A stretch of 50,137 nucleotides of DNA from Anaerolineae bacterium (GCA_041082215.1 JBDOIF010000038.1:1-50137), one strand, 5' to 3'. Counted from the stretch's first letter, positions 9,363 through 39,096 are shown. Notes: generated by a model not told the origin, from the sequence alone. A program made the numbers and translations.

Positions 9363-10403
9363 CTATTCTCTGCTGGCTGCCGGGATCTCCCTGCCTTCAT
9401 ACTGGCGCCTGTAATACTCCTGGTAATACTCCCCGCTCTTGATGGGCCGCCACCACCACTCGTTCTCGACATACCAGCGGACCGTCTGTTCCAGCGCCTC
9501 CTCAAAGGTGTAGCCTGGCTCCCATCCCAGCGCACGGATCTTGGAGATGTCGAGCGCATACCGACGGTCGTGGCCGGGCCGGTCACGGACAGGCTGGATA
9601 AGGGAATGGGGCTTGCCCAACAGGTCCAGGATCGCCCGCGCCATATCCAGGTTGCGGGTCTCTATGCCGGTCCCCAGATTATAGACCTCCCCCGGCTCTC
9701 CCCGGTGGAGCACGACGTCGATCCCCTCACAGTGGTCCAGCACATACTGATAATCCCGCATCTGGGAGCCGTCGCCGTAGAGGGGCAGCGGCAGGTTGTC
9801 TATGGCGTTGGTGATGAACAGCGGGACCACTTTTTCCGGATACTGGTAGGGGCCGATGTTGTTGGAGCCCCGGGTGATCGTCACCGGGACGCCGAAGCTG
9901 GTATGGTAGGCAATACAGAGGAGGTCGCCGCTGGCCTTGGAGGCGGAGTACGGGCTGCGGGTATGGAGCGGATCGGTCTCCCTGGCCCGCCCTTCCATGA
10001 CCTCGCCGTAGACCTCGTCGGTGCTGATCTGGTGGTACCGTTCCAGGCCGAATTCCCTGGCCGCTTCCAGCAGCACGTAGGTTCCGAAGACGTCGGTGCG
10101 GATGAACTCGTCTGGCTCCATCAGCGAGCGGTCCACGTGAGTGGCGGCGGCGAAGTTGACGATTGTATCAATCCGGTGTACCTGGATCACCTGGCGCACC
10201 TTACCGGCGTCGCAGATGTCCCCCTGAACGAAGAAGTACCGGTCGGCGAATGCCTGGGCCACATCCTTCAGGTTTTCCAGATTGCCGGCATAGGTGAGCT
10301 TGTCGTAGACCACGACCCGGTAGTCGGGGTATTTCCGCAGTATGTAACGGACGAAGTTGGAGCCGATAAAGCCGGCCCCTCCGGTGACCATCAGATTGCG
10401 CAC
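9363..10403 (-). CDS. rfbB: dTDP-glucose 4,6-dehydratase
   Basis: TGGAGFIG, DKLTYAGN, THVDRS, STDEVYG, YSASK, DRPGHDRRY; likely GTG start at 10403. Confidence 0.95.
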   Translation of the reverse strand: MRNLMVTGGAGFIGSNFVRYILRKYPDYRVVVYDKLTYAGNLENLKDVAQAFADRYFFVQGDICDAGKVRQVIQVHRIDTIVNFAAATHVDRSLMEPDEFIRTDVFGTYVLLEAAREFGLERYHQISTDEVYGEVMEGRARETDPLHTRSPYSASKASGDLLCIAYHTSFGVPVTITRGSNNIGPYQYPEKVVPLFITNAIDNLPLPLYGDGSQMRDYQYVLDHCEGIDVVLHRGEPGEVYNLGTGIETRNLDMARAILDLLGKPHSLIQPVRDRPGHDRRYALDISKIRALGWEPGYTFEEALEQTVRWYVENEWWWRPIKSGEYYQEYYRRQYEGREIPAASRE

Positions 10404-10432
10404 AGCCTTTCTCCCGGGAAGATGATGGACGT

Positions 10433-10461
10433 ATTCTACCACAACTCGGTGCAGGTGATAA
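10433..10461 (-). promoter_or_regulatory. sigma70-type promoter of rfbB
   Basis: Minus strand TTATCA (10461-10456), 17-nt spacer, TG-n-TAGAAT (10438-10433). Confidence 0.6.
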
Positions 10462-10476
10462 ATGGGCTTCTACAGG

Positions 10477-10667
10477 AGGTGTATTTCAGTTTGGGGGCGA
10501 GATGTCCCTGGCCCGGGCCGGACCTGGGGAAACACGAATGGCGCGAATGGAAACGAATACCGCGAATGGAGCAGGTATCCCTCCTGTTCGCCGTATTCGG
10601 GCCATTCGTGGGATTCGCGATCCACCGGCGAGCGAGAGGACCACTCGCCCCGAAATTGAAATACGCC
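10477..10667. mobile_element. MITE family A, copy 1
   Basis: Terminal inverted repeats GGTGTATTTCAGTTTGGGGGCGAG / CTCGCCCCGAAATTGAAATACGCC; flanking direct repeat CTTCTACAGG; near-identical to copies at 18379 and 38828. Confidence 0.9.
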
Positions 10668-10670
10668 CTT

Positions 10671-11603
10671 CTACAGGGGGCCCTGGGCCAGTCGGGCGAT
10701 CTTCGGGCCGACTTCCCGCCAGGAGATTTCGGAAAGCCCCAGTTTCTGCCGCAGCCGATTTGGCGGCATCCCCGCCTGGTAATCCCGCACTGCACAGGTC
10801 CAGCGGAGCATCTCGAAGGAGAGATCATCGGGAAGGTTGGCCCTCCTGGCTATATCCTTAAGCACATACTCGAGGTTGCGGGCAGTGCAGGGGAAGAGAC
10901 GTTCCTGGGGTTGATACTGAGCTTTGTACTCGCCCAGCACTTCGGGCCACCAGGCCGGTAGGCGGAGCTGTCTTTCTTTATGTCGGCGGCGGGGGTTGGC
11001 GTATCGGATCCAGAGGACCGGCTGGCCCGGATCGGAGAGGTCAATGTGGTTGAGGACGATGTTCATACACTCCCCCTTCTTGATCCCGGTGTGCAGCAGC
11101 AGCGTGACCAGGAGGTGAGGGCGCGCATCCGGGGGGTCGCCGTTTCGGAGGGCCTGGGTGGTCTCCAGCATCCGCTCGATCTCCTCATCGGAAAGGATGC
11201 GGGGGAGAGGGGTCAGCACTGGCCGATGGACGACCGGAGCGGCGGGGTCCTCCGAAAGCACCCCCGTCTCCGCCAGCCAGCCGAAGAAAACCTTGAGGGT
11301 GGTGATGCGGCGGGCCAGCGACTTGGGGTTGCACGGTACCCCCCGCTCGCTCACCAGCCAGCGGACAAACTGGTTCAGCTCGCGCGTCCCGATCGCCCCG
11401 ACAGCGGTGCCGGCCCCCACGTATTGAATCAGGATCTGAAGATCGGAATTGAAGGCCTGAACGGTGTGGGGGCTGAAATCCCGCTCCCGCATGTAGAGCT
11501 GGAAGCCATCCACAGCGGCGCGGAGGGAAGAGCGGGCAGTGAGACCCGCAGGGGGATCGGAACGGGACTCGTCACCCGGACTGTCATTTATCCGTTCGGC
11601 CAT
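10671..11603 (-). CDS. XerD-like tyrosine recombinase-fold protein with degenerate catalytic residues
   Basis: SAM-like N-domain (SPHTVQAFNSDL, SLARRITTLKVFFGWL), LPRILS, HTGIKKGE, SFEMLRWT, LGL; no C-terminal Tyr; ATG 11603 with AGGAG SD. Confidence 0.85.
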   Translation of the reverse strand: MAERINDSPGDESRSDPPAGLTARSSLRAAVDGFQLYMRERDFSPHTVQAFNSDLQILIQYVGAGTAVGAIGTRELNQFVRWLVSERGVPCNPKSLARRITTLKVFFGWLAETGVLSEDPAAPVVHRPVLTPLPRILSDEEIERMLETTQALRNGDPPDARPHLLVTLLLHTGIKKGECMNIVLNHIDLSDPGQPVLWIRYANPRRRHKERQLRLPAWWPEVLGEYKAQYQPQERLFPCTARNLEYVLKDIARRANLPDDLSFEMLRWTCAVRDYQAGMPPNRLRQKLGLSEISWREVGPKIARLAQGPL

Positions 11604-11643
11604 CGCCTGTCTCCTCTTCTTCGCATAGGTATAACCTGAGGCC

Positions 11644-11671
11644 ATTGTAGCGCACCTCTCCGACCTGTCAA
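11644..11671 (-). promoter_or_regulatory. sigma70-type promoter of the XerD-like gene
   Basis: Minus strand TTGACA (11671-11666), 16-nt spacer, TACAAT (11649-11644). Confidence 0.65.
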
Positions 11672-11748
11672 GCTCTCAGCCAGTGCCCACCAACCCGCCC
11701 GGCTGGGAAATTTGGGATAAAGTTATCGTTTTATTTGGCTTATCGGAC

Positions 11749-11778
11749 TTGACAATGGGGAGATAAATATGGTATGAT
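11749..11778 (+). promoter_or_regulatory. sigma70-type promoter of the FtsK-domain operon
   Basis: TTGACA (11749-11754), 18-nt spacer, TG-n-TATGAT (11773-11778). Confidence 0.75.
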
Positions 11779-11788
11779 AACAGCGCAT

Positions 11789-11802
11789 AGAACGAATGTT
11801 CT
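11789..11802. promoter_or_regulatory. LexA (SOS) box
   Basis: AGAAC-GAAT-GTTCT matches the GAAC-N4-GTTC LexA motif of Firmicutes, Actinobacteria and Chloroflexota; lies just downstream of the -10. Confidence 0.75.
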
Positions 11803-11853
11803 TATTTCTTTCATCGTGGGGGGTTTCCGATGGGAGCGCAGCGGGGAGGAGAC

Positions 11854-12930
11854 ATGCGCAGGATGCTGGAATACCAGGCAGACCGCATCGAGGCGGTGCT
11901 GGCCCAACACCGGGTGCCGGGGCGGGTGACGGGAGGCACAGTAGCGCCCCGCTGGATCCGCTTCCAGGTTCTCCCGGCGATGGGGGCCCGCATCGCCACC
12001 ATCAAAAACCTCTCCGAGGAGCTGGCCGCCGCCCTGGACGCCCCCTCCGTCCGCGTCGCCCGACGGGGCGCCGCCGTCGCCATCGAGGTCCCACGGGACG
12101 ACCCCCAGCCCATCCGCCTTCTCCCCCTTCTCCGCGCCCTCCGCAACGTCCCGCCCGTCACTGCCTGCCTGGGGCTGGACGATGAAGGCGTGCCCCTCCT
12201 CATCCGCCTCCCCTCACCCGATGTCGCCCACGTCCTGGTCGCCGGAACCACCGGCAGCGGCAAGACCGTCCTCCTGCGTTCGATGGCCCTCAGCCTGGCC
12301 CTCCGCCACCCCCACCCCGGCGAGCTGGCCCTGCTCCTCATTGACCCCAAAGGACGGGCCTTCCGGGAGCTGGCCCCCCTCCCCCAACTGGCCCGGCCGG
12401 TGGTGGTGGAGGTGGGGGAGGCGGTGGAGGCGCTGGGAAGCCTGGTCCGCCTGATGGAACGGCGGGACCGGTGGGGGGAGAGCCAGCCCCCGGTGGTGGT
12501 GTTCATTGATGAGCTGACCGACCTGATGATGGTCGGCGGGGCAGAGACGGAGCGCCGATTGACGCGGCTGTTGCAGCGGGGGCGGGAGGCAGGCATCCAC
12601 ATTGTGGCTGCCACCCAGAAGCCGACGGCGGCGGTCATTGGCAGCCTGGTCAAGGCCAACTTCCCGGTCCGGCTGGTGGGGAAGGTGGCCAGCCCGGAGG
12701 ATGCGCGGGTGGCCGCCGGGCAGGGAGGGACCGGTGCGGAACGGCTACTGGGGCGGGGGGATTTCATCGCCGTGGCGGAGGGGCGGCTGTACCGGTTCCA
12801 GGCCGCCTATGTCACCTCCGAAGAGATCGCAGAGGTCGTCTCCGCCCTGCGCTGTGAGGGGGTGCTCCGGCTGGAGTCGGGCCAGGTGTGGGAGGCGATC
12901 CCGGCAGGGGTCGGAGGCGGAGAGGAATAG
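11854..12930 (+). CDS. FtsK/SpoIIIE motor-domain protein (alpha and beta domains only)
   Basis: Alpha-domain-like N-terminus (VAIEVP), Walker A GTTGSGKT, LIDPK, Walker B VVFIDE, ATQKP, GAERLLGRGD; no TM segments and no gamma domain. Confidence 0.88.
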   Translation: MRRMLEYQADRIEAVLAQHRVPGRVTGGTVAPRWIRFQVLPAMGARIATIKNLSEELAAALDAPSVRVARRGAAVAIEVPRDDPQPIRLLPLLRALRNVPPVTACLGLDDEGVPLLIRLPSPDVAHVLVAGTTGSGKTVLLRSMALSLALRHPHPGELALLLIDPKGRAFRELAPLPQLARPVVVEVGEAVEALGSLVRLMERRDRWGESQPPVVVFIDELTDLMMVGGAETERRLTRLLQRGREAGIHIVAATQKPTAAVIGSLVKANFPVRLVGKVASPEDARVAAGQGGTGAERLLGRGDFIAVAEGRLYRFQAAYVTSEEIAEVVSALRCEGVLRLESGQVWEAIPAGVGGGEE

Positions 12931-12933
12931 GAA

Positions 12934-13148
12934 CGCAATGATGAGTTTTAACAGATTAATCCGGCCATAATCCTGCGCGGCTCTTGTGGAAACAACGGGG
13001 CGCAGGCCGCCAGGCCTGCAGGGACAGGCTAACAGCCTGCGCTACGCCCGGCCATTCTTGTGGGCATAGTGCTCCCCGACCACGCAAATTCCCGGAGAAC
13101 CTCCTGCACCATTGTGCACGGATTAATTTTTCAAAGTTCATCATTGCG
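12934..13148. mobile_element. MITE-like element family B carrying an internal REP-like pair
   Basis: 30-bp terminal inverted repeats (25/30 match) CGCAATGATGAGTTTTAACAGATTAATCCG / CGGATTAATTTTTCAAAGTTCATCATTGCG. Confidence 0.7.
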
Positions 13149-13194
13149 CCCGTGCTGCGCCCCGATGATGGGGCAGGGATGAAGGGAGGAGAAG

Positions 13195-13620
13195 ATGGAG
13201 GGATCATATGGCTACAATATGCCCCCCGATCCGGGTCGGAACCGACCCTGGGCGCGGTTGCGGATGTTTGGGGGTCTTCTTGCGGTCGTCTTTGCTGTGA
13301 CGCTGGCCGTCCTGATCGGGCAACGGCTCAGCGACCAGGCGATGGCAGTGCTGGCGGGGGCGGTGTGCGGCGTGGGGGCCAGCATTCCCACCAGCCTCCT
13401 CATCGTGTGGGTCACCCAGCGGCGGCGCGAGCAGCAGCCTGCGCAGATAACCGGGGCCTACCCACCCGTGATCGTCGTCCAGCCGCCCCCTCAGCCTGGC
13501 CTCTCGGGACAGGCGCCGGGCCAGCCGGGATACCTGGCCCCTTTCTCGCCGCCAGCCCAGCGGGAGTTCACCGTCGTCGGCAGCGAGGGAGAGGAGGTGA
13601 GATATGGCCGTTACCAGTGA
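13195..13620 (+). CDS. Hypothetical membrane protein (two hydrophobic helices, Pro-rich tail)
   Basis: SD GGAGGAG; hydrophobic segments at about aa 25-42 and 51-73. Confidence 0.7.
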   Translation: MEGSYGYNMPPDPGRNRPWARLRMFGGLLAVVFAVTLAVLIGQRLSDQAMAVLAGAVCGVGASIPTSLLIVWVTQRRREQQPAQITGAYPPVIVVQPPPQPGLSGQAPGQPGYLAPFSPPAQREFTVVGSEGEEVRYGRYQ

Positions 13621-13906
13621 GGCGCGGCGGCCCCGTTCCGGCCGGGAGATCCGGCAGCGTCCGGGCAAGGGGGCCGAGCCGGTGGAGGTGCGCCAGAAAC
13701 GGCACAATTATTTCCCCCACGTGTTCGTCTGGCGTGGGCGGGAGTATCGGGTAGAGGCAGTGGAGCAGTGCTGGACCCTTTCCCGACGCGGTCAGGGGGG
13801 ACGGGTTGAGGGGCACTGCTTCCGCGTCCGTTGCCAGGAAGGCACCTTCGACCTGTTCCAGGACGCACGGGTGGGCACCTGGCACATGAAGCGAAAGGTA
13901 CGATAG
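13604..13906 (+). CDS. Small beta-rich protein, DUF6504-like
   Basis: P..FVWRGREYRV..V.Q.W...FRV.....FDL.......W pattern; SD GGAGGTGA; overlaps the upstream stop. Confidence 0.65.
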   Translation: MAVTSEARRPRSGREIRQRPGKGAEPVEVRQKRHNYFPHVFVWRGREYRVEAVEQCWTLSRRGQGGRVEGHCFRVRCQEGTFDLFQDARVGTWHMKRKVR

Positions 13907-13915
13907 GAGGCAAAG

Positions 13916-14692
13916 ATGAAAGTGTATCGAGTGGAAAACAGGGACCAGGCACAGGCAGCCTACCCGTGTGCGACGGAAAGCCCCACCCCTTTCTGGGCCG
14001 ATGGCCTGTCCCTTTCCAGAGAGTGGTTCGCCGAGAGCCTGGGGCAGTTCGTGGAGGGCTTCCACCTCGAAGACGACACCGGCCGGGTGATCGGGCACAT
14101 CTACTGGGCACCGTCCGAAAGAGCGCTGGTTCCCTATCGCATCGAGGAGGGTGCCGCTTTCCTGTACTGCGAGTGGTTGCAGCATTCCTACCGGGGACGG
14201 GGTTATATGCGGATGCTTTTCGACGCCTTTGTGGCCTTTCTCCGGCGCGAAGGTTGCAAAGGGATTCTGGTGGACGGCACGGAATTCGAAGGGTATATGC
14301 ACTATCGCCACTTCGCCAGGAGGGGCTTTCGGGTGATCCAGCAGGGAGATGGAGGGGGGTTAATGTATCTGCCGCTGTCGCAGGAAGCGGTCCACGTAGA
14401 AACCCTTCACCCACGGATAACCCGAGGGGGGATAGCGCCGGTCGAAGTGCTGATCATCGGCTCCCGCTTCTGTCCGGTGGGCGCGTCGGCTGTGCTGGCG
14501 GTTCGGAAGGTAGCGGGCGAGCTGGGGGCAGGTGTGGTGGTGCAGGAAGTGCCGGCGGGACCCGATGCCCTCGCCCGCTACGGCGTGGCCGACGGGATCT
14601 TCGTCAACGGAAAGGCGCGCTTCTTCGGCCCGGTCACCGAAGAGCAGGTCCGCGCCACCCTTCAGGAGGAGCTGAGACAGGCCATCGGCTGA
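13916..14692 (+). CDS. GNAT acetyltransferase with C-terminal thioredoxin-like domain (YoaP-like)
   Basis: YRGRGY acetyl-CoA motif, FARRGF; C-terminal FCP...YGVADGIFVNGK. Confidence 0.7.
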   Translation: MKVYRVENRDQAQAAYPCATESPTPFWADGLSLSREWFAESLGQFVEGFHLEDDTGRVIGHIYWAPSERALVPYRIEEGAAFLYCEWLQHSYRGRGYMRMLFDAFVAFLRREGCKGILVDGTEFEGYMHYRHFARRGFRVIQQGDGGGLMYLPLSQEAVHVETLHPRITRGGIAPVEVLIIGSRFCPVGASAVLAVRKVAGELGAGVVVQEVPAGPDALARYGVADGIFVNGKARFFGPVTEEQVRATLQEELRQAIG

Positions 14693-14716
14693 AACACTGG
14701 GGGTCTGGAGGGGGGA

Positions 14717-14986
14717 ATGAAGGTCGGGTTGTTGTGGTTTGATGATGATCCAGCGCGGGACCTGGAGCAGAAGGTGGGGCGGGCGGCCCGCCACTATCAG
14801 CAGAAGTTCGGGCGCTCTCCCAGCGTCTGTTACGTCCATCCCTCCCTGCTGAAGGGAGGAGAGCTGTGCCACGTGAACGGTTTGAAGGTGCTTCCCCTCC
14901 CCTCGGTGCTCCGCCACCACTTCTGGATCGGCGAAGAGGAGGGAAACGGATCATCCCCACGGCGAGAGCGCAGCCGGGCGGGTTAG
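14717..14986 (+). CDS. Hypothetical protein
   Basis: SD GGAGG; GLLWFDDD...AARHYQQKFG..P..CYVHP pattern; typical codon usage. Confidence 0.7.
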   Translation: MKVGLLWFDDDPARDLEQKVGRAARHYQQKFGRSPSVCYVHPSLLKGGELCHVNGLKVLPLPSVLRHHFWIGEEEGNGSSPRRERSRAG

Positions 14987-15017
14987 ACCGTTTCCATCAC
15001 CCCGCCTCTCGACCGGT

Positions 15018-16001
15018 TCATGAAGCCAGAGCTGCCACCAGCAGGTCCAGAGCCGCCTCCACGGCCAGCTCCCCGCCCTTGATCTGCAGGTCCGTCTCCA
15101 ACAGGTGGCGGTAGATCTGTTCCAGCTGGCCGGAGGTGAAGTTAGCCGCCTGGGCGTAGAGCTTGCTGGCAGGGAAGGGGTGAAGGCCCAGGATGCGGGC
15201 AACGCTGGATGGGTTCTCCCCGGCCTGACGGAGTTCCTGCACCTGGATGAGCAATCGGAACTGGCGGACAATCATAGCGAGGATCCCCATCGGGCTTTCT
15301 CCTCCCTCCAGCAGCCGGTGAAGTGTCTGTGCCGCTGTCGCCCCATCCCGTCGCCCGAGGGCATCCACCAGATCGAAGATCACCGCCTGGCGTGCGTAGG
15401 GGACAAGGCGGGCTACGTCCTCGACGGTCACAGCCCGGTCTGGCCCGGCGTAGGTCACCAGCTTTCGGATCTCCTGGTCCAGGAGCCGCAGGTCCTGCCC
15501 GACGACCTCGGCCAGCCGGGCAGCGGCATCCGGTTCGATCCGCCCTCCGTACTTTTCAGCCCGCCCAAGGACCCAGTGCGGTAGCTGGCCGGGCTCCGGC
15601 GGCTCAAACTGACGGGCATAGCCGCGCTCATGCCTCCGGGCCAGTTGAAGGACCGGATGTTCCTCCGGCAGCGCCCTGTCCTCGACGAAGACCAGCCGGG
15701 TCGTCTCCGGCAGATGGGGAAGAAGGTCCAGCAGCTCTTCCAGGAAGGCCCTCTCCTTCCCCTGCCCCAGGCGGTCCAGAAGCCCCGTCACCACCACCAG
15801 CCGCCGGTCTGCCATAAAGGGTATCGTCTCACAGGCGTGACGGAGCTCTCCCAGCGTCACCTTTTGCCCGTCGAGCCAGGTGGTATTCAGCTCCGCCATC
15901 TCCGGCGGGCCTAACCGCTGGCGCAGCTCCGCCACCGTCTCGGCGCGGGTGAACTCATCACTGCCGTGGAGCACATAGAAAGTGGGGCTGGGACGGGCCA
16001 T
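15018..16001 (-). CDS. holA: DNA polymerase III delta subunit
   Basis: YVLHGSDEF, PFMADRRLVVV, EIRKL..Y, IFDLVDA, DLQIK.G. Confidence 0.92.
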   Translation of the reverse strand: MARPSPTFYVLHGSDEFTRAETVAELRQRLGPPEMAELNTTWLDGQKVTLGELRHACETIPFMADRRLVVVTGLLDRLGQGKERAFLEELLDLLPHLPETTRLVFVEDRALPEEHPVLQLARRHERGYARQFEPPEPGQLPHWVLGRAEKYGGRIEPDAAARLAEVVGQDLRLLDQEIRKLVTYAGPDRAVTVEDVARLVPYARQAVIFDLVDALGRRDGATAAQTLHRLLEGGESPMGILAMIVRQFRLLIQVQELRQAGENPSSVARILGLHPFPASKLYAQAANFTSGQLEQIYRHLLETDLQIKGGELAVEAALDLLVAALAS

Positions 16002-18362: not shown

Positions 18363-18378
18363 GCACACCTTACAGGAC

Positions 18379-18567
18379 AGGTGTATTTCAGTTTAGGGGC
18401 GAGATGTCCCTGGCCCGGGCCGGACCTGGGGAAACACGAATGACGCGAATGGAAACGAATACCGCGAATGGAGCAGGTATCCCCCCTATTCCGTATTCGG
18501 GCCATTCGTGGGATTCGCGATCCACCGGTGAGCGAGAGGACCACTCGCCCCGAAATTGAAATACACC
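18379..18567. mobile_element. MITE family A, copy 2
   Basis: Same terminal repeats and interior as copy 1; flanking direct repeat CTTACAGGAC. Confidence 0.9.
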
Positions 18568-18568
18568 C

Positions 18569-20242
<1,674 letters not shown>

Positions 20243-38827: not shown

Positions 38828-39018
38828 AGGTGTATTTCAGTTTGGGGGCGAGATGTCCCTGGCCCGGGCCGGACCTGGGGAAACGCGAATGGCGCGAATG
38901 GAAACCAATACCGCGAATAGGGCTGGGATCCCTCCTGTTCGCAGTATTCGGGCCATTCGTGGGATTCGCGATCCACCGGCGGGCGAGAGGACCACTCGCC
39001 CCGAAATTGAAATACGCC
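38828..39018. mobile_element. MITE family A, copy 3
   Basis: Same terminal repeats and interior as copies 1 and 2; flanking direct repeat CGCAGCCCAT. Confidence 0.9.
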
Positions 39019-39096
39019 CGCAGCCCATTTTCTCCGCGGGTGGGGGACCGGACCCTCCACCGATCCAGGACGTCCGGGCAGGCCGGAAAGCCTGCC

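Follow-up and report, generated by a model that had tools for sequence, protein, structure and literature searches.

Two described systems come closest to the locus reported here. In Escherichia coli, the SOS response induces ftsK through the dinH promoter, which LexA controls (PMC4080785), and SmeA, a small membrane protein of Streptomyces, directs the weakly FtsK-like protein SffA to sporulation septa (PMC9380542, PMC4255298). Our locus lies at positions 10671–14986 of a 50,137-nt contig of an Anaerolineae bacterium, the whole of which we refer to as the window, within a genome assembly of 3.53 Mb (174 contigs, 65% G+C, 96% complete). Downstream of a near-consensus promoter and a LexA-type operator it encodes a short FtsK-type motor, a proline-rich protein with two transmembrane segments (the 2-TM protein), a protein of the DUF6504 family and an 89-residue protein that we call p89. 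The explanation we favor, to which we give about an even chance of being right, is that these genes would specify a damage-induced, membrane-tethered DNA pump that is linked to division and kept under LexA repression.

Placed beside the E. coli gene as it is presented in PMC4080785, the locus has in common an FtsK-type double-stranded DNA motor that is predicted to be under SOS control. In that account, however, the motor is part of a single, essential, full-length FtsK with membrane and gamma domains, whereas here it is a third, short paralogue that has neither gamma domain nor anchor and comes with its own operon and partners. The likeness to SmeA and SffA, as far as PMC9380542 and PMC4255298 describe them, is one of arrangement: a small membrane protein is encoded beside a soluble FtsK-like protein and co-occurs with it (in 35/37 and 10/18 loci of the two samples described below). 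Unlike our locus, the Streptomyces pair appears in those sources with the gene order reversed and with no DUF6504 or p89 partners, and smeA, reported as a LexA target, is described there as down-regulated by mitomycin C and subject to developmental control. No paper dealing with the present operon was found by title or abstract in a literature search to which subscription journals were mostly external, and the same search returned no paper on DUF6504.

The motor and its LexA-type operator

An earlier note on this DNA, made from the window alone, described the motor as FtsK alpha and beta domains with neither a transmembrane anchor nor a gamma domain, and Pfam and hydropathy agree with that description. 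FtsK_alpha (PF17854) is matched at E 3e-12 (47 bits against a cut-off of 22.9) and FtsK_SpoIIIE (PF01580) at E 3e-35 (122 bits against 24), while the Pfam search gives no match to FtsK_gamma (PF09397). The protein opens directly with the alpha domain, without an N-terminal membrane domain, and its highest hydropathy over 19 residues is 1.34, so that no transmembrane segment is predicted. Translation probably starts at Met 11854, because the orthologues begin MR.MLEYQADRIE and the database protein has 358 residues. The nearest solved structure is the Pseudomonas aeruginosa FtsK motor 2IUU (E 3e-48), and the alignment with this and the related motor structures 2IUT (P. aeruginosa) and 2IUS (E. 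coli) spans the alpha and beta domains over residues 13–337, with Walker A, Walker B, TQ(R/K)P and the arginine kept. Unlike those proteins, the motor is without an N-terminal membrane domain, a linker and a gamma domain, and in the alignment it lacks about 45 beta-domain residues. Across 31 orthologues there is little or no variation in the Walker A sequence GTTGSGKT, the Walker B residues DE, the TQKP motif and the Arg of PVRLVG. By these motifs the ATPase of the motor is intact and of FtsK type, with anchor and gamma domain both absent.

The canonical counterparts, whose separate presence the earlier note had left to be confirmed, are encoded elsewhere in the genome: PF09397 is matched by only two FtsK frames (754 and 758 residues), and a canonical Xer is also present. 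Longer orthologues of the motor (444–501 residues; P0022, P0027, P0037, P0061, P0067, P0081 and P0100) have an additional conserved C-terminal domain of about 100 residues that is missing from this genome's copy and that may bind DNA or a partner. A gamma-like identity for this extension was rejected (hhalign probability 0.4%). An assignment of the motor to the EccC-type secretion ATPases was likewise rejected, as it has an FtsK alpha domain and a single ATPase domain and scores far below the cut-offs for the type VII secretion system.

The promoter and operator predicted by the earlier note, a near-consensus promoter with AGAAC-N4-GTTCT just after the −10 element, are borne out. The promoter matches 11 of 12 consensus positions and has TG before the −10; three promoter-like sites were seen in 10400–15300 against 0.7 expected. 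The box, AGAACGAATGTTCT, starts 10 nt after the −10 and is the sole match of its type in the window, where 0.01 would be expected and one of 100 shuffles had a match. Exact GAAC-N4-GTTC sites number 39 in the genome, and those in an A+T-rich context lie at lexA, at a radical S-adenosylmethionine/helix-hairpin-helix gene (rSAM; TIGR03916), at mraZ and at the window's box. The lexA gene carries TTAGAACGTATGTTCCTAT between its −35 and −10 elements, which the window's box resembles, and the encoded LexA retains Ala-Gly, GDSM and LKR motifs, which we take to be those of the cleavage site and catalytic center. When the genome was scanned with a weight matrix trained on 30 boxes of relatives, all from other genomes, the window's box was the top site at 26.0 bits; the rSAM operon (24.5 bits), mraZ (22.0 bits) and lexA (21.8 bits) were all among the next four, and just 12 sites exceeded 14 bits. 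The earlier note had taken GAAC-N4-GTTC to be the LexA site of Chloroflexota and Gram-positives; for this genome, the match to the lexA promoter box and the top genome-wide score support a LexA-type operator at the operon. The LexA regulon predicted for this genome is tiny, and this operon would have its best operator. Two further LexA-type sites also score highly, one of 19.9 bits at C148:7948, about 540 bp upstream of an integrase-like match, and one of 25.7 bits at C106:87, at the end of a 2-kb contig with an IS110-family transposase.

The box and promoter recur upstream of orthologous motors. We queried 40 genomes from three families of the same order with the motor and called orthologues at rows of at least 50% identity; 31 of the 40 relatives have one. 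Among 37 orthologue loci (rows), 27 have an exact box within 400 bp upstream of the motor. The frequency of the box in this genome (39 in 3.53 Mb) corresponds to a chance of about 0.0044 per 400 bp, a figure that gives scale only, the relatives not being independent. Two of the remaining ten rows are not assessable and three (L045, L051 and L052) are boxed further upstream, leaving L019, L024, L025, L034 and L047; of these, L034 carries tandem motors preceded by an excisionase-like helix-turn-helix (HTH) gene, while in L047 the box-like sequences are all degenerate. A second, independent sample was drawn from named genomes searched with p89, of whose 141 confirmed loci 80 were kept, nearly all from assemblies of Anaerolineae, Anaerolineales, Thermoflexales or Ardenticatenales; in 37 of the 80 a motor lies beside p89, and these we refer to as module loci. 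Of the 29 module loci that allow assessment, 23 have a box no more than 300 bp away and 28 have one no more than 1600 bp away. As a control for box frequency we used 20 loci around orthologues of the catalytically dead Xer-like gene (pseudo-Xer) that is transcribed divergently from the operon here, and the 19 besides this genome's contain one box, which is not at a promoter.

The layout is kept as well as the box. In 26 of 27 orthologous upstream regions there is a TTGACA element, a spacer of 16–18 nt and a TATgAT element (at least 10/12 positions), and in 25 of these 26 the box begins 2–13 nt after the −10. Five upstream regions contain a second box between −35 and −10, exact in three and with one mismatch in two. 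It is strongly supported by these comparisons that the operon carries an operator of this species' LexA type, overlapping the start region of a strong promoter; from the operator we infer LexA binding and induction by damage. A TTTGGGATA-like motif about 8–12 nt upstream of the −35 (window ~11710–11745) recurs in many relatives (L011–L023, L035) and could be an UP-like element or the site of a second regulator. TTTGGG repeats also precede the −35 of this genome's lexA.

Conserved partners of the motor

Gene order around the motor is conserved across the relatives: in the fetched loci it is recurrently followed by the 2-TM gene, often a DUF6504 gene, p89 and a convergent holA. The 37 module loci include a 2-TM gene in 35, a DUF6504 gene in 23 and holA in 21, and in 15 lexA is directly upstream and co-oriented. 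One locus outside the 37 rows counted for boxes (L026) reads box, recA, motor, 2-TM, DUF6504, and L045, which is among those rows, reads box, lexA, cysteine-rich protein, motor. This recurring synteny shows a real conserved operon, in other species fused behind lexA or recA, and its core is the motor and its 2-TM partner, often DUF6504, and then p89. Of the five co-oriented genes that the earlier note had grouped into one operon these four are conserved, and the fifth, which encodes an acetyltransferase with a thioredoxin-like end, is confined to this genome's copy. Some genomes carry two copies of the motor. Tandem lexA paralogues, each with its own boxes, occur at L120, L135, L136 and L154; the cysteine-rich protein (about 150 residues, no family) precedes the motor in L135, L136 and L154, is absent in L120 and follows the single lexA in L045.

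The 2-TM protein has hydrophobic stretches at approximately residues 24–42 and 52–72 and a tail (residues 74–141) of 17.6% proline. Its 24 aligned orthologues share an inter-helix QRLSD, basic residues that follow helix 2, a PPVVVV motif and a C-terminal R-x-F-T-V-V-G-E-E. Both ends are probably cytoplasmic, because basic residues flank the helices on both sides. A role as the anchor of the motor fits the tight co-occurrence of the two genes in 35/37 module loci and in 10/18 loci of mobile elements. The latter come from a viral-contig collection that contains 359 relatives of the motor; we inspected 18 loci, with motor homologues 38–70% identical, and found a 2-TM homologue downstream of the FtsK-like gene in ten. 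All ten share the transmembrane, PPVVVV-type and R-x-F-T-x-x-G-type layout. Across the 18 mobile loci p89 is present in one, DUF6504 in none and a box within 300 bp in none. In five of them the neighbors include a DNA methylase, ParA, a ParM-like actin, Cro/CI-type regulators, an AAA_25 ATPase and an HTH_17 protein, a setting that by its gene content is like that of a plasmid or an integrative and conjugative element (ICE). Since ten of the mobile loci have the 2-TM partner and the 18 have almost no p89 or DUF6504, the motor and its partner form a self-sufficient two-gene unit, to which the chromosomal form adds LexA control, DUF6504 and p89. A search of the ESM Atlas with the 2-TM protein and p89 returned only unnamed Chloroflexota clusters.

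The DUF6504 protein matches PF20114 at 29.5 bits (cut-off 24.2), and the family is matched by all 13 aligned members. The strongest DUF6504 gene of the genome (E 2e-25) closes a second operon with a LexA box, comprising rSAM (TIGR03916), a metallo-beta-lactamase-fold protein and DUF6504 (C18:21739–24140). The SOS link of the canonical DUF6504 paralogue is confined to some relatives: an rSAM gene lies beside it in 3/20 other loci, with a box also in two of these; in another genus the canonical paralogue sits among unrelated genes. The earlier note had likened DUF6504 to small proteins of mutagenesis cassettes, a likeness that could not be shown here: a link to ImuB or to an imuA-imuB-dnaE2 cassette was rejected, as no Y-family polymerase domain (PF00817) is matched in the 96%-complete genome and its DUF6504 genes sit in the FtsK-like and rSAM operons.

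p89 has no family in Pfam, NCBIfam, PADLOC or PHROGs, and eight members of its own family, including the longest, match no Pfam family except for one weak zinc-ribbon match. Profiles of p89 and DUF6504 give only chance-level matches to solved structures (best E 0.58 and 0.018, respectively). The p89 family is large: a profile search recovers 2663 cluster representatives with E values no higher than 1e-3, and 1276 when the limit is 1e-10. This genome has a paralogue, 50% identical, between mraY and murD in its division and cell wall (dcw) cluster. A dcw context is found for 20 of the 80 named copies. In a tree of 82 copies, a clade with support of 97/91 takes in all 21 copies in a dcw context and six of undetermined context; none of the 40 module-linked copies falls inside it, but they do not group as one clade either. 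In a small clade of stand-alone copies a box lies directly upstream in three of four (L147, L153 and L156, at most 120 bp), and a copy grouped with the dcw clade (L145) also has one within 120 bp upstream. At the head of this genome's dcw cluster the mraZ box, TAGAAC-AGAT-GTTC (C46:91795–91814; 22.0 bits), overlaps the mraZ start codon. An exact box is found at mraZ in 19/30 relatives, 19/22 in the presumed family of the window and 0/8 in another family, and its non-coding left half is conserved.

Layout of the locus and neighboring genes

The features of the locus are collected in Table 1. The DUF6504 gene begins before the 2-TM gene ends. Between the motor and 2-TM genes, a gap of 264 nt is filled by a 203-bp interspersed repeat with inverted ends, resembling a miniature inverted-repeat transposable element (MITE), which has seven further long matches elsewhere in the genome (103–203 nt, 87–98% identical) and a DNA depth of 100–220 against about 17 in the flanks. 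A second interspersed repeat, about 192 bp long and partly self-complementary at its ends, occurs in the window at 10477–10668, 18371–18575 and 38828–39019. It accounts for 111 blastn hit rows in the genome, most of them 90–98% identical, including a copy just upstream of recA, and its DNA depth is about 100–200 times that of the flanks. A scan of the window against Rfam gave no match.

Table 1. Features of the locus and its immediate surroundings (window coordinates)
Feature	Position	Strand	Basis or remark
Xer-like gene, catalytically dead	10671–11645	−	chance neighbor, divergent from the operon
Promoter, TTGACA-18-TATGAT	11749–11778	+	sigma-70-type, 11/12 consensus positions
LexA-type operator, CATAGAACGAATGTTCTTAT	11786–11805		core AGAAC-N4-GTTCT at 11789–11802
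FtsK-type motor	open reading frame 11830–12930, likely start 11854	+	Pfam alpha and beta domains
Interspersed repeat, 203 bp, MITE-like	12941–13143		this genome's copy only
2-TM proline-rich protein, 141 residues	13195–13620	+	hydropathy, alignment
DUF6504 protein	13604–13906	+	PF20114
GNAT acetyltransferase, weak thioredoxin-like C-terminus	13916–14692	+	Pfam
p89, 89 residues, motifs GLLWFDDDP, CYVHP, LRHHFW-G	14717–14986	+	alignment of 18 members
holA (DNA polymerase III delta), convergent neighbor	15018–16001	−	Pfam; marks the module's place on the chromosome

The fifth co-oriented gene encodes a GCN5-related N-acetyltransferase (GNAT). The earlier note had called its product GNAT-thioredoxin-like; the GNAT part stands, with Acetyltransf_1 above its cut-off, and the thioredoxin part is weak (Thioredoxin_3 at only 19.1 bits against a cut-off of 24.8). 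No match to this gene was found at 29 relatives' loci or at 80 named-genome loci, and by this distribution it is an insertion in this genome and not a conserved member; as a gene present only in this copy, it was rejected as part of the module.

The Xer-like protein has recognizable XerC/XerD architecture, an N-terminal SAM-like fold and a C-terminal integrase fold. Unlike XerC and XerD, however, it scores far under the cut-offs of their models (TIGR02224 and TIGR02225; about 75–80 bits against about 330) and is without the catalytic residues: compared with the genome's canonical Xer, Arg-I is replaced by Lys, His-II by Glu and the Tyr nucleophile by Gly, identically in 20/20 aligned orthologues, which confirms the catalytically dead state noticed earlier. 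Its gene probably starts at the second Met, at 11603, because a minus-strand promoter (11671..11644) overlaps the first ATG. Orthologues are single-copy and present in 36/40 relatives at 55–77% identity. At the 19 other pseudo-Xer loci we found no FtsK-like gene and no box at the Xer promoter, and in 9 of the 20 loci the gene lies directly downstream of ftsZ, which in this genome is elsewhere. It may be a DNA-binding, non-catalytic, division-linked protein. The earlier note had included it in the module; it has instead a conserved position of its own, and its adjacency to the motor, seen only in this genome, led us to reject it as a partner.

Proposed function and alternative explanations

In the explanation that we favor, DNA damage would lead to RecA-stimulated self-cleavage of LexA and thereby free the promoter. 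The soluble motor, with its ATPase motifs intact, would form an FtsK-type ring on double-stranded DNA, and the cytoplasmic, proline-rich tail of the 2-TM protein, with its R-x-F-T-V-V-G-E-E end, would hold this ring at the membrane or septum, the partner standing in for the missing N-terminal anchor of FtsK. Because the motor is without a gamma domain, it would pump DNA without reading the FtsK-orienting polar sequences (KOPS) and without activating Xer. p89, as a paralogue of a protein of the mraY–murD region, would tie the pump to the machinery for division and the cell wall or tune that machinery, and DUF6504 would have an accessory part, as a protein found repeatedly in SOS operons. As a net result, closing septa would be freed of unsegregated or broken DNA, with division meanwhile held or adjusted. 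We infer damage induction, tethering by the 2-TM tail, unguided pumping and the coupling of p89 to division from gene content, motifs and the operator.

Several observations weigh against this proposal. Nine of the 40 relatives have no orthologue and only canonical FtsK at about 40% identity, and in a phylum sample of 400 other genomes (E up to 1e-55, five candidates scored per genome) just seven have a motor match; the module is therefore lineage-limited and dispensable. The recA gene of this genome has no exact box upstream (C95:8122–8404). Because the repeat and the extra GNAT gene interrupt the operon here, co-transcription of all its genes is not assured. Contigs from a single metatranscriptome library, the only one with pieces of the locus, cover 12067–12903 and 14501–15216 at a depth of 2–6, which is too thin to give transcript limits or induction. 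Finally, homologues of the motor and its partner amid plasmid- or ICE-like genes fit DNA transfer as well as they fit the clearing of septa.

One of the two main alternatives, unlikely but compatible with the pump, is a division checkpoint, in which septation is blocked or re-timed by the 2-TM protein, p89 or both, and the motor is accessory. SulA, YneA, SidA and DidA are division inhibitors of other bacteria, and outside E. coli the usual SOS division inhibitors are small membrane proteins; the paralogy of p89 to a protein of the dcw cluster, the box over the mraZ start codon in 19/22 genomes of the family, and the boxes within 120 bp of p89 copies L147, L153, L156 and L145 point the same way. 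However, motor and 2-TM protein travel on mobile elements almost without p89, so that the 2-TM protein seems to belong with the motor rather than with the divisome, the invariant ATPase motifs argue for the importance of pumping, and no similarity to any known inhibitor was found in Pfam, other family libraries or solved structures. We consider it distinctly unlikely, for the other main alternative, that the locus is a domesticated DNA-transfer unit, a conjugation-type double-stranded DNA pump that moves DNA between neighboring cells of a filament under SOS control. Streptomyces TraB (with Spd proteins) and the archaeal Ced system are FtsK/HerA-type ATPases that move double-stranded DNA together with small membrane proteins, and the Ced importer is induced by ultraviolet light. 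Homologues of our motor–partner pair sit on plasmid- or ICE-like elements: motors 38–70% identical on viral-collection contigs are followed by a 2-TM homologue in 10/18, among DNA methylase, ParA, ParM-like actin and regulator genes. Two copies in some genomes, the locus with an upstream HTH gene and tandem motors, and a C-terminal extension of the longer orthologues that could bind DNA are in line with such an origin. Against it, and unlike TraB and Ced, the chromosomal form is fixed beside holA or lexA across genera and has LexA operators and extra partners, whereas the mobile copies are boxless (0/18 within 300 bp). No active integrase, relaxase or replication gene was found around the module in the window, nor att-like direct repeats flanking the genes, nor a tRNA gene anywhere in its 50 kb; this genome's motor has no C-terminal extension, and its similarity to TraB (E 1.9e-5) and CedB (E 0.0018, confined to the P-loop) is far below the family cut-offs. 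It is a more speculative idea still, and improbable, that the operon is the bacterial counterpart of damage-induced DNA exchange, its tethered pump, indifferent to sequence, moving double-stranded DNA after SOS induction across septa between filament neighbors so that an intact chromosome copy serves as repair template, with a machine derived from or shared with a plasmid/ICE-like transfer apparatus.

Far less probable is anti-phage defense or abortive infection triggered by DNA damage. The motor does match the FtsK-type domains of SspH (E 1e-35) and mad8 (E 1.5e-28) in PADLOC, and its distribution across the phylum is patchy; yet only the shared ATPase domain is matched (SspH, mad8, HerA), six other proteins (the five window neighbors and the cysteine-rich protein of a relative) have no PADLOC match, the synteny beside housekeeping genes is stable and vertical, and the linkage with lexA and recA speaks for repair. 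Least probable of all is that the motor works with the divergent pseudo-Xer, or that the locus is the remnant of an integrative element. FtsK and XerD are a textbook pair, in which the gamma domain contacts XerD, and in this genome the two genes are adjacent and divergent; but the adjacency is seen only here, the gamma domain is absent from the motor, att repeats were looked for and not seen, and the pseudo-Xer gene, which follows ftsZ in 9/20 loci, has a promoter box in none of the 19 others. By synteny this reading is largely refuted.

The SOS response of the Chloroflexota is almost unstudied. Given so small a predicted LexA regulon, in which this operon has the highest-scoring operator, the operon is likely to be a main output of the response to damage across a large group of environmental bacteria that grow as filaments. 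If its motor is tethered as proposed, the module would be a natural split FtsK, with motor and anchor separate, and as such useful for the study of how the pump is placed and controlled. It would also provide the first functional handles for three uncharacterized families: DUF6504, the 2-TM protein and p89. The dcw paralogue of p89 and the box at the mraZ start codon, in turn, suggest that in this lineage DNA damage and cell division are connected in a way that is open to test.

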